Both the position numbers and the translations under genes were made by a program. The notes below the pieces were generated by a model. The model searched no databases. It was given only the letters and a program-made list of their open reading frames with translations, and had not been told where the DNA came from. Shown one piece after another: positions 59,471-61,849 of a DNA stretch of 64,000 nucleotides. The DNA lies in the IMG/VR virus record IMGVR_UViG_3300032308_002775, positions 89,670 to 153,669 of that record. One strand, written 5' to 3'. How positions within the stretch are numbered: position 1 is the first letter of the stretch; the number at the start of each line of letters is the position of its first letter. Source of the stretch: a virus.

Positions 59471-59830
59471 ATGAGTAACGATCAAGATGCGCGTTTGAAA
59501 GCGTTAGAGTCGCTTTCTGCGCTCGATCAGGAACTCGGTCTGGGCCAGTTCAAGTGGCCTCAAGACCGCGAGATTGACGGTTTGAAACTTGTCTGCACCT
59601 GCGGCGCCTGTCCGGAACAGTACGACGTATTCGACGGCGACACGCAGGTTGGCTATCTTCGACTGCGCCACGGCTGGTTTTACGCCGCCGTGCCCGATGT
59701 TTGCGGCGAAACCGTCTACGAATCGCACCCGCGCGGCGACGGCATCTTCGACGATGACGAACGCGACGCGCACCTGACCGAGGCCGTCAAGAAAATTCGC
59801 GAGTGGATGCAGCGAGCATGCAAGAACTAG
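59471..59830 (+). CDS. Hypothetical phage protein
   Basis: TC.ACPEQYDVF....QVGYLRLRHG block; SD GGAGG. Confidence 0.7.
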   Translation: MSNDQDARLKALESLSALDQELGLGQFKWPQDREIDGLKLVCTCGACPEQYDVFDGDTQVGYLRLRHGWFYAAVPDVCGETVYESHPRGDGIFDDDERDAHLTEAVKKIREWMQRACKN

Positions 59831-60315
59831 CCGTCACCCTCCGCTTCAACCGGGTTTGCCTCGGAGCGGCCAAACGCCGTAAGCACGGCCAGGTCGTGTT
59901 CGCCTTCGAGCGCGACCCGAACGGGCGGGTGATGTTTCTGCCTAGCGCCTGGGCTAGCCTTTTGCGGTACGCCGCCAAGCTTGCCAACCGGCATCAGGCC
60001 GCGGTCAAGAAAATTGATCTGTGTCCGGTGGTGCGCGGCGAGCCGTGCAATGACTGGCGGCGCACCGTGGTCACCCAGGTCGGGCCGCAGCCCAAAAGCC
60101 ACTTCGTGGTTCACGAGGCGTTTCGTCCGGGCGACACAGCGACCATATCCGCGGTGTTACCAGACGACATCTCAGTTGCCGATTTTGAGCATCTGCTCAC
60201 TCTGATTGGCAAGTACAAGGGGTTTTCACCATTCAACAACGACAGCGAAAAGTATGGGACATTTGAGGTTGTTTCAATCGAGCCCGTCCCTGGACCAGGC
60301 CTCGACGCCAGTTAA
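59818..60315 (+). CDS. Stand-alone RAMP (Cas7/Csm3-like fold) protein
   Basis: N-terminal strand VTLRF...LG; FERDPNGRVMFLPSAWASLLRYAA; HEAFRPGDT; C-terminal G-loop IGKYKGFSPF...YGTFEV. Confidence 0.65.
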   Translation: MQELAVTLRFNRVCLGAAKRRKHGQVVFAFERDPNGRVMFLPSAWASLLRYAAKLANRHQAAVKKIDLCPVVRGEPCNDWRRTVVTQVGPQPKSHFVVHEAFRPGDTATISAVLPDDISVADFEHLLTLIGKYKGFSPFNNDSEKYGTFEVVSIEPVPGPGLDAS

Positions 60316-60316
60316 C

Positions 60317-61849
60317 ATGCCGCCGCAAAATGTGTTAATCACGCGCAGCGGCAACGTGCTCACGCTTTCAGACGCGAGCGGCGGACCGCTGGAGTCTGCC
60401 CTGATCAAGCGGCTCACGTTCGATCTGCGGTATGAGCACATGGAGGCTGTGCAGGGCGGCCAGGCTCGCCGGGATCCGATCACGGGCCAGCGCATGTACT
60501 TCCAGACCAAGGAGTACAAGCTGTACCGTGTCGAGAACGGCAAAGTGATTGTTCTGGGCGGGTATCTCGCCCGAATGGTTGGACGGCTCAGGAAGCTGGG
60601 CTGCAATCCGTCGTTGCGGGATATCTCGCCCCAGCGCAAACGACCAAATTGCTATGTGCCGCAGTGGGACAACCTGCGCGGCCGCATCGATTTTCGGCCC
60701 CGCCAGGAAGAGTGCATGCGGACGATTGCTCGCGTGCCGTGCGGCATCATCAAGGCCGTGACCGGCTTTGGGAAGACCACGCTGATCGGTGCCGCCGCGC
60801 TGCTTTTCCCGGACGCCCGCATCGACGTGGTCACCAAGAGCGTCGACGTGGCGGAACGAATCAAGCGCAGCCTGCGGCGGTTTGTTCCGAAGGTCGGCAT
60901 GATCGGCGACGGCTGGAAGCAGCGCGAACGGGTCACGGTGATTACCGCTGGCTCGCTGGCGCACGCTGATGGTGACGCGGACTTTCTGTTCGCCGACGAG
61001 GTCCATCAGCTCGCGACGATTAACTTTTCGACGACGCTCGCCAGCCGCTACCGCAACTCGCGGAACTTCGGGATGTCGGCCACGCCGTACGCCCGCATGG
61101 ACAACGCGCACAACGTGCTCGAGCCGCTCTTCGGTCCGATGGTCTTCGAGCTGACGTACCAGCAAGCGGTCGAGCTCGGACTGGTCGTGCCGGTGCGCGT
61201 CAAGTGGCTGCCGATGCGGCTCCACACAAACCCTGCCGAGCGTTTTTCTAATCGCGTGGCGCGCAAGCGGCACGGAATCTGGACAAACCACGAACGGAAC
61301 TCTATCATCGCCGCCGCCGTTCGGGACTACCCCGAGACACACCAGATCCTTATTCTCGTCGAGACGATCGAACATGCGGTGCATTTGGGGAGTCAACTGC
61401 CGGATTTCAAGCTGGTATACGGCTCGATGTCTCCGGCAGACTGCGCGTTTTACAAGAAGCACAAGCTGCTGCCCGAGGATTACACGCCGCTCAGTGAAAT
61501 CGAGAAGCACGACATGCGGAGCCAGTTTGAATCTGGCGAGCTGCGGCGGGTCATTGCGACAGACGTCTGGGCAACCGGCGTCGACTTCGAGCAGCTCAGC
61601 GTCCTGGTGCGCGCCGACGACCGCGACAGCGACATCGTCGACGTGCAGGGTCCCGGACGAGTAAGTCGCATTTACACAGCGCCCGACGGAACTCGTAAGG
61701 AATACGGCGAGGTGCTGGATTGCATGGATACTTTTGACCCGACTTTTTACCGAAAAAGTCTCGGCCGTCGAAACAGCTACAAGCTACTAGGATGGGAGCA
61801 AAACTGGCATGACGCTCAAAGAAGCTGGCGCGGCGGCGGCGGAGACTGA
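60317..61849 (+). CDS. Superfamily 2 DExH helicase (UvsW/XPB-like)
   Basis: RPRQ, TGFGKT, DEVH, SATP, TGVD, QGPGRVSR. Confidence 0.9.
   Translation: MPPQNVLITRSGNVLTLSDASGGPLESALIKRLTFDLRYEHMEAVQGGQARRDPITGQRMYFQTKEYKLYRVENGKVIVLGGYLARMVGRLRKLGCNPSLRDISPQRKRPNCYVPQWDNLRGRIDFRPRQEECMRTIARVPCGIIKAVTGFGKTTLIGAAALLFPDARIDVVTKSVDVAERIKRSLRRFVPKVGMIGDGWKQRERVTVITAGSLAHADGDADFLFADEVHQLATINFSTTLASRYRNSRNFGMSATPYARMDNAHNVLEPLFGPMVFELTYQQAVELGLVVPVRVKWLPMRLHTNPAERFSNRVARKRHGIWTNHERNSIIAAAVRDYPETHQILILVETIEHAVHLGSQLPDFKLVYGSMSPADCAFYKKHKLLPEDYTPLSEIEKHDMRSQFESGELRRVIATDVWATGVDFEQLSVLVRADDRDSDIVDVQGPGRVSRIYTAPDGTRKEYGEVLDCMDTFDPTFYRKSLGRRNSYKLLGWEQNWHDAQRSWRGGGGD

Follow-up and report, generated by a model that had tools for sequence, protein, structure and literature searches.

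A minimal RAMP-like protein without a detected guide array, encoded beside an XPB-like helicase in the replication/recombination operon of large phages

The last 64,000 nucleotides of the IMG/VR viral contig IMGVR_UViG_3300032308_002775 (positions 89,670 to 153,669; hereafter, the window) carry a small gene, here called mini-RAMP, directly upstream of a superfamily 2 (SF2) helicase gene. Structural models indicate that its product is a minimal RAMP—a member of the superfamily of RNA-binding proteins to which the Cas7 backbone of CRISPR effectors belongs—and remotely akin to the phage protein Vipr. On balance, and partly by analogy with these proteins, we lean towards the view that mini-RAMP is a core gene of phage replication and recombination whose product would bind strands without being programmable, as a partner of the neighboring helicase. 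The contig as a whole comprises 153,669 bp and is estimated to be ~75% complete, its relatives being 180-235 kb in size. The two genes at issue are as follows:

59818..60315, + strand: mini-RAMP gene (ATG 59818, TAA 60313-60315; 165 aa, 18.3 kDa, pI 9.1)
60317..61849, + strand: XPB-like SF2 helicase gene (ATG 60317; 510 aa)

A single base separates the mini-RAMP stop codon from the helicase start codon (TAA-C-ATG), which corrects an earlier note, made from the sequence alone, that had the reading frame end 2 nt before the helicase ATG. An in-frame GTG at 59803 would lengthen mini-RAMP by five residues, but its homologues all begin MQE/MRE.

The AlphaFold2 model of mini-RAMP, built from a shallow alignment of 29 close orthologues, reached a predicted local distance difference test score (pLDDT) of 78.9 and a predicted template modelling score (pTM) of 0.76. 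In the N-terminal part, the predicted topology comprises strand 1 (residues 2-10), small hairpins, helix 1 (42-56), and strand 2 (67-73); the C-terminal part consists of a hairpin (81-98), strand 3 (107-114), helix 2 (120-134), a 14-residue glycine-rich loop, and strand 4 (149-156). As modelled, mini-RAMP is thus a RAMP with a single RRM (RNA recognition motif) fold that bears both a thumb and a glycine-rich loop (G-loop):

mini-RAMP residues about 74-99: thumb hairpin (AlphaFold2 model)
mini-RAMP residues 131-148: G-loop (AlphaFold2 model)

A Foldseek search of the PDB with this model returned 43 matches at E <= 0.001, with a best E of 2.9e-5, and all 43 were CRISPR RAMPs (Csm3, Cmr4, type VII Cas7, and Cas7-11), bearing out the RAMP fold that the earlier note had proposed to check in this way. 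A separate structure search, in which VIA-align compared the model with 48,161 representative chains, gave its highest Z scores to a Csm subunit (10.9), Cmr-beta (9.6), type VII Cas7 (9.3), Csm3 (8.9), and Cmr4 (8.5); ranks 1-34 were occupied exclusively by CRISPR RAMP-containing proteins, with the first non-CRISPR protein appearing at rank 35. In BFVD, three matches were obtained at E <= 0.001, one of them annotated as a RAMP superfamily protein and the other two without a functional name.

The earlier note had also read RAMP-like motifs in the expected order from the sequence of this one protein. All of them are present and coincide with the most conserved columns of an alignment of 105 family members—namely, a strand 1 that ends in LG, an R-D-x-x-G preceding helix 1, an H-E-A-F-x-P-G ahead of strand 3, and a loop of the form G-x-Y-x-G-F-S-P-F...Y-G-T-F-E-V—although one spacing in the pattern as first written was wrong by one residue. 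Across the family, conservation peaks in three places: where strand 1 ends, in the thumb hairpin, and in the G-loop. The G-loop motif G-x-Y-x-G-x-S-P is nearly invariant, as is the H99-E100 pair at the thumb base.

Grouping the homologues of mini-RAMP at 90% identity gives 248 clusters, found for the most part on contigs of up to about 207 kb; at 50% identity there are 155 representative clusters, all of which are stand-alone proteins of roughly 110-260 aa without long fusions. ESM Atlas clusters of these relatives are 97-100% viral and unnamed, and carry a lead (0.75) to PF03787. The window protein itself matches no RAMP model in Pfam, PHROG, or NCBIfam, and as a single sequence it finds nothing in the PDB with phmmer; likewise, none of the 105 family members matches a Pfam RAMP family, and the NCBIfam models yield a single match among them, to cas_cmr3 at E 0.088. 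Searches of INPHARED phages recovered no match to the region (megablast), to mini-RAMP, or to the helicase (tblastn), and thus no cultured relative in that collection. A profile of the 105 diverse members, compared with PDB sequences, gave one match: 36pp, 'SUSP1 Vipr', at E 0.053. We located the SUSP1 vipr gene at L046:28474-29061 (minus strand) and gathered its homologues into a SUSP1-clade profile, with which the mini-RAMP family profile aligns in hhalign at 94.1% (E 1.3e-7) across 42 C-terminal columns only, a stretch that runs from the last part of strand 3 through helix 2 and the G-loop to strand 4. Vipr is the sole protein to which sequence comparison appears to link mini-RAMP, and the link is remote and partial.

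Could the protein instead be a generic ferredoxin-like or RRM protein that only happens to look like a RAMP when modelled at medium confidence? The pLDDT, the near-complete lack of matches to RAMP profile models just described, and the high root-mean-square deviation of the model from Cas7 chains (3.4-8 Angstrom) would all fit such a protein. We nevertheless regard this explanation as highly improbable: two independent structure searches rank CRISPR RAMPs, rather than other RRM proteins, in their top 34 to 43 places, and an independent profile comparison places the match to Vipr precisely on the segment that comprises helix 2, the G-loop, and strand 4. As far as the predicted fold can be trusted, its resemblance to RAMPs is far beyond chance.

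Comparison with the two known groups of RAMPs brings out what is peculiar to mini-RAMP. Csm3, Cmr4, type VII Cas7, and Csf2 represent the class 1 Cas7 proteins, which provide the best structural matches and share a similar arrangement of motifs behind strand 1 and ahead of helix 1; mini-RAMP is, however, much smaller, lacks their extra insertions and any RAMP HMM (hidden Markov model) match, and is encoded without a CRISPR array or genes for cas5, cas6, or large or small subunits. Nor does anything point to a catalytic Asp of the type III kind, which lies in the loop that follows strand 1 and whose position was not mapped. VIPR systems, described in 2026, combine the RAMP protein Vipr with vrRNA and vap, and the seven types distinguished so far all use pentamer vrRNAs (bioRxiv 10.64898/2026.04.26.720920, 10.64898/2026.04.26.720927). 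Some types include nuclease or helicase accessory genes (bioRxiv 10.64898/2026.04.26.720920), and a further, later preprint adds non-canonical triplets. The elements of Vipr that contact RNA include the thumb and the G-loop, and Vipr filaments make R-loop triplexes on double-stranded DNA (dsDNA) without a protospacer-adjacent motif (PAM) (bioRxiv 10.64898/2026.04.26.720927).

Like Vipr (SUSP1, PDB 36pp), mini-RAMP is encoded by a phage, has a mass in the range of about 18-20 kDa, is predicted to be a minimal, single-RRM RAMP with thumb and G-loop, and has an aromatic residue in that loop. Beyond these features the two diverge. The N-terminal two thirds of the proteins cannot be aligned by sequence, and the residues that read the guide differ: in the G-loop of SUSP1 Vipr, D177 reads G1 and is essential, W178 stacks on G2, and R179 holds Y3 (bioRxiv 10.64898/2026.04.26.720927), whereas in the hhalign register these positions fall on P138, F139, and N140 of mini-RAMP, such that only the aromatic is kept in kind. 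Vipr is accompanied by a pentamer vrRNA array (9-16 repeats of GGY/NN or a related triplet), which mini-RAMP lacks; and whereas Vipr occurs sporadically, in a compact two-gene locus (vipr and vap) lying between long intergenic regions, mini-RAMP is universal in its lineage, slow-evolving, and part of the core of a replication operon. A guide-less RAMP in a replication operon is not mentioned in the VIPR preprints.

The operon was examined in 63 related loci, assembled in three sets (44, 11, and 8) in which the RAMPs are 33-88% identical to that of the window; no IMG/VR locus turned up for the peripheral family members P0261 and P0264. In all 63, genes on one strand follow the order Mre11, Rad50, p321, mini-RAMP, helicase, usually p243, and (where the locus extends far enough) a DnaB-like helicase. 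In the window, the genes surrounding the mini-RAMP/helicase pair are:

54537..55721, + strand: Mre11/SbcD-like nuclease (Pfam Metallophos); conserved position
55663..57819, + strand: Rad50/SbcC-like ATPase (Pfam SMC_N, AAA_23, SbcC_Walker_B); conserved position
57800..58738, + strand: p321, TasR/IS110-like protein (312 aa, ATG 57800); directly upstream of mini-RAMP in most relatives
58725..59830, + strand: three small genes (147, 62, and 119 aa) between p321 and mini-RAMP; outside the conserved module
61809..62540, + strand: p243, a fast-evolving conserved protein of 243 aa; overlaps the start of the DnaB-like gene (ATGA)
62537..64000, + strand: DnaB-like replicative helicase, cut by the contig end; the orthologue in relative L002 matches Pfam DnaB_C

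In L002, the DnaB-like gene is followed by genes for a DnaG-type primase and a family A DNA polymerase with a UDG-like fusion; farther on, at a distance of a few kb, comes a RecA-like gene. The absence of cas genes beside the RAMP, already remarked from the window sequence, is borne out in that its neighbors are replication and recombination genes, and analysis of the neighborhoods of homologues finds the linkage to the helicase kept in 63/63 loci. Over 42 close loci, median identity to the window protein is highest for the helicase (79%) and mini-RAMP (68%), followed by Mre11 (63%), Rad50 (58%), p321 (57%), the DnaB-like protein (46%), and p243 (42%). Values of dN/dS (the ratio of nonsynonymous to synonymous substitution rates) for mini-RAMP are 0.02-0.19, with dS saturated, and on this sequence evidence the gene is under strong purifying selection. 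In most close loci, mini-RAMP and the helicase gene are joined either by the same one-base spacer between stop and ATG or by an overlap of 8-23 nt.

These patterns bear on the idea that a lone RAMP serves as an anti-defense decoy, poisoning the complexes of a host class 1 CRISPR system or the VIPR filaments of a rival phage by co-assembly or by sequestering RNA. Phages do mimic components of defense systems, and a RAMP fold without partner cas genes is what such a decoy might look like. Anti-defense genes, however, are usually sporadic and fast-evolving, whereas this one is universal, fixed in position, under strong purifying selection, and housed within a replication operon in translational coupling to a helicase. 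We rejected the anti-CRISPR decoy for this evolutionary pattern, and give it very little credence.

The helicase matches Pfam ResIII and Helicase_C as well as phrog_16, and its best sequence matches in the PDB are to XPBII (6p4f/5tnu, E 6e-12, residues 120-429) and to archaeal XPB (2fwr) rather than to DinG; judged by these matches, which cover both RecA-like domains, it is XPB-like. The earlier note had drawn a parallel with type IV CRISPR-Cas, in which a Cas7 is paired with a helicase. One part of that parallel holds, in that a RAMP gene adjoins an SF2 helicase gene here just as in type IV systems (Csf2 and DinG) and in the helicase-linked VIPR types. The specific analogy fails: type IV loci encode a DinG/XPD helicase (Csf4) together with Csf1, Csf3, Cas6, and an array, whereas the mini-RAMP locus has an XPB/XPBII-like helicase and none of those components. 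We thus rejected a type IV reading of the locus because the helicase is of the wrong type.

Small dedicated partners are known for other SF2 helicases of repair and recombination, including Bax1 for archaeal XPB and UvsW.1 for T4 UvsW. The mini-RAMP locus resembles these pairs in that an SF2 helicase is co-expressed with a small partner in a setting of recombination; Bax1 and UvsW.1 are not RAMPs, and no homology is claimed. Separately, five relatives (L002, L009, L025, L026, and L029) have a helicase gene that exceeds that of the window by about 1.4 kb. In L002 it forms a 919-aa open reading frame (ORF; L002:10500-13046) with a LAGLIDADG_3 domain inserted near residue 130. The insert, absent from the window copy, has the look of an intein that occupies a conserved motif in an essential gene.

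Guide arrays were sought across the whole contig and in its relatives. Runs of YNNGG in the 153,669-bp contig reach at most 3 units, and runs of NNNGG and YNNNG occur at chance level. A motif-free period-5 scan, summing the three best columns over 8-12 units and compared with Markov shuffles, scored the contig (G000) no better than the shuffles, and period-5 power within its intergenic space—23 gaps, each 120 nt or longer, which add up to 4.8 kb—was likewise at chance. There are no CRISPR-like spaced repeats anywhere in the contig, and Rfam reports no CRISPR family on it, identifying only a single feature:

45642-45714 of the window, + strand: tRNA gene (Rfam, 66.6 bits)

Since the contig is incomplete, we also checked its closest complete relative, G001 (203,910 bp with terminal repeats; mini-RAMP 88% identical), and found no period-5 signal either genome-wide or in its 26 intergenic gaps. 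Tandem repeats detected by TRF in the contig and in G001 are coding repeats only, with periods that are multiples of 3, and include no TIGR array. A TIGR-like repeat of period 18 at 473-1044 of the window was rejected, as it encodes a collagen-like (G-P-T)n protein; the corresponding gene (2-1138, + strand) combines a long (G-P-T)n tract, which generates the period-9/18 repeat, with a duplicated Cys-containing N-terminal module. The same period-5 scans strongly detected the arrays of a divergent relative, G005, which served as a positive control. The absence of repeat-spacer or short-period arrays, noted at first for the window, thus extends to the entire contig and to complete G001.

We then consider whether the locus could be a canonical VIPR system whose vrRNA array and accessory gene fall within the part of the genome, roughly 25%, that is missing from the contig. 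Two relatives make the idea worth weighing, as G005 and G012 bear large pentamer arrays far from their mini-RAMP genes. In a survey of 20 mini-RAMP-bearing records for 7-unit runs of GSY/NN, these two were the only ones with clustered runs; of the 15 records at least 90% complete, 13 have no such run and one has a single isolated match. In G005, a 195-kb genome with a mini-RAMP 48% identical to that of the window, the region at 184.8-190.1 kb holds about 24 arrays, each made up of 6-13 GCY/NN pentamers; the arrays inspected have a conserved tail after them. A 224-aa ORF beside them aligns to the SUSP1-clade Vipr profile over 170 columns, and shows no similarity to mini-RAMP. In G012, an ORF inside a 6.5-kb array region aligns to the Vipr profile at 94% and keeps the loop G-I-G-D-W-R. 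The two loci are:

L067:4108-4782 (= G005 184108-184782), minus strand: G005 Vipr gene; arrays at G005 184851-190065
L079:4534-5667: G012 VIPR locus; arrays at L079 3322-9787

Because a separate, bona fide Vipr gene adjoins the arrays in both genomes, we attribute these arrays to an accessory, canonical VIPR system from which mini-RAMP is distinct. Together with the lack of any period-5 array in complete G001 and of runs in most near-complete relatives, this makes a canonical system completed by the missing sequence very unlikely. A 'lone array' at G005:43436-43520 was rejected as a 15-nt coding repeat. The accessory systems are of some interest in themselves. The fixed triplet in G005 is GCY, not GGY, and its Vipr G-loop reads G-L-G-A-F-R-P in place of G-x-G-D-W-R-P, while the pentamer units of G012 mix GGY and GCY and its Vipr loop retains D-W-R. 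Repeat triplet and G-loop residues thus vary together, a possible sign of a specificity code.

A guide that is not encoded as an array deserves separate consideration, in part because of p321. The AlphaFold2 model of this protein (pLDDT 91.6) shows an N-terminal RuvC-like domain joined to a Nop-like helical domain, the same pairing found in TasR of TIGR-Tas systems and in IS110 bridge recombinases. VIA-align relates it to TIGR-TasR (9mty_B, Z 10.6 over 231 residues within 8-309), TasH (Z 8.9, 123-308), and the IS110 recombinase ISCro4 (Z 7.0); in Foldseek, nine of the top 10 entries are IS621, ISCro4, or TasR chains, with an unrelated entry at rank 6, at weak E values of 0.07-0.2. Present in 63/63 loci, p321 differs from TIGR-Tas in having no adjacent TIGR array and perhaps in its RuvC acidic residues: among 26 orthologues, no acidic residue is invariant in the first RuvC strand (consensus I-K-L-H-T), and full or almost full invariance is seen only for D122 and D176.

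In an RNA-guided effector of this kind, mini-RAMP would polymerize on phage or host RNA, perhaps nucleated by p321, and direct the helicase and possibly Mre11-Rad50 to matching DNA, for example to open an origin by means of an R-loop. Several observations are consistent with such a scheme—two neighboring proteins have the folds of guide-RNA holders (Cas7/Vipr and TasR), the elements that contact RNA in Vipr correspond to the most conserved parts of mini-RAMP, and the known VIPR systems furnish precedents both for PAM-free R-loop triplexes on dsDNA (bioRxiv 10.64898/2026.04.26.720927) and for helicase accessory genes (bioRxiv 10.64898/2026.04.26.720920). Nevertheless, neither the contig nor its complete relatives contain an array or periodic RNA gene associated with mini-RAMP, the intergenic space that could house a guide is tiny, the residues with which Vipr reads fixed guanines are replaced, and universality with slow evolution suits a housekeeping function better than a conflict system. 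We consider a non-array guide unlikely. Yet more doubtful is a related proposal in which p321, mini-RAMP, and the XPB-like helicase form a single replication/recombination machine: p321 would nucleate a RAMP filament on transcript or primer RNA, and the helicase would place the resulting R-loop to start or restart synthesis.

Other features of the operon are less uniform. The three-gene insertion between p321 and mini-RAMP occurs only in the window and, in part, in L002, with p321 abutting mini-RAMP elsewhere; the 119-aa product of one inserted gene matches phrog_21607 (function unknown), and copies of it occur at other places in other relatives (L008). The p243 gene is found in most of the 44 close loci, is seldom detectable in more distant ones, and has no Pfam or PHROG match; a weak ESM Atlas lead (0.85) to T4 gp59_N raises the possibility that it is a helicase loader. 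The family A polymerase of L002 (L002:16593-19952, + strand) carries a UDG-superfamily domain N-terminal to its 3'-5' exonuclease domain. Finally, in distant relatives the mini-RAMP and helicase genes are separated by non-coding spacers of 70-390 nt with stable GC-rich hairpins:

L044:10445-10547, L071:7544-7644, L073:7309-7413, L075:7532-7719, and L078 about 7480-7865: mini-RAMP-helicase spacers

No pentamer pattern is seen in the spacers, and the sole conservation among them is between L071 and L073, which are closely similar and have two hairpins in common. Hairpin z scores are about -2.5 to -2.7 in three relatives, and the structures are possibly attenuators or terminators.

The earlier note had left two alternatives, a minimal RNA-guided effector with its guide encoded elsewhere or a RAMP domesticated into the replication/recombination block. 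We favor the second because the gene is universal, fixed in position, under purifying selection, and situated within a block that runs from Mre11-Rad50 to DnaB, primase, and PolA; we disfavor the first because arrays are absent from the contig and from G001, those present elsewhere have their own Vipr, and the base-reading residues of Vipr are not retained. Under the preferred reading, mini-RAMP would grip a single strand, either RNA or single-stranded DNA, in the manner of RAMPs through helix 1, the G-loop, and the thumb. We suppose this grip to be retained because the conserved residues lie in the three regions named above (strand 1 end, thumb, and G-loop), and the basic character of the protein (pI 9.1) accords with it. 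The protein would probably form a head-to-tail oligomer, and no programmable repeat would be read when it binds. Acting in stoichiometric amounts as partner to the XPB-like helicase, taken here to be a duplex opener, it would hold or hand over the strand that the helicase exposes. Such a step might fall at the start of recombination-dependent replication or during fork repair, after end resection by Mre11-Rad50 and before loading of DnaB, primase, and polymerase, with p321 probably acting in the same step as a binder of junctions or RNA-DNA hybrids.

Several considerations weigh against this reading. The proposed mechanism draws on gene order and on analogy with Cas7 and Vipr, confidence in the underlying RAMP model is moderate given its pLDDT and the 29 close sequences aligned, and the sequence link to Vipr is limited to 42 C-terminal columns. 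The nearly invariant H99-E100 pair could mean that the protein is catalytic and does more than bind. A guide RNA that lacks periodic repeats may exist, as Cas7 binds spacers of any sequence, and about a quarter of the genome is missing from the contig. Lastly, the bacterial-type single-stranded DNA-binding protein (SSB) family PF00436 has no match in the contig, in complete G001, or in complete G005, which weakly allows for an SSB-like role of mini-RAMP. A search for gp32 (PF08804) also gave no match, but it detected nothing in its control either and so carries no weight.

RAMPs known earlier, in CRISPR effectors and, since 2026, in phage VIPR systems, hold programmable guide RNAs, whereas for mini-RAMP no guide array was found; it offers an opportunity to test what function a non-programmable RAMP fulfils, as well as a small pair of strand-binding protein and helicase for biochemistry. 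Should the doubtful three-protein machine of p321, mini-RAMP, and helicase prove real, strand-gripping RAMPs may have served replication in large phages, with VIPR and CRISPR systems derived from that role, or the module would be the first known domestication of such systems into a replisome. The family bears on the question of whether RNA-guided immunity arose from viral replication proteins, or the reverse.

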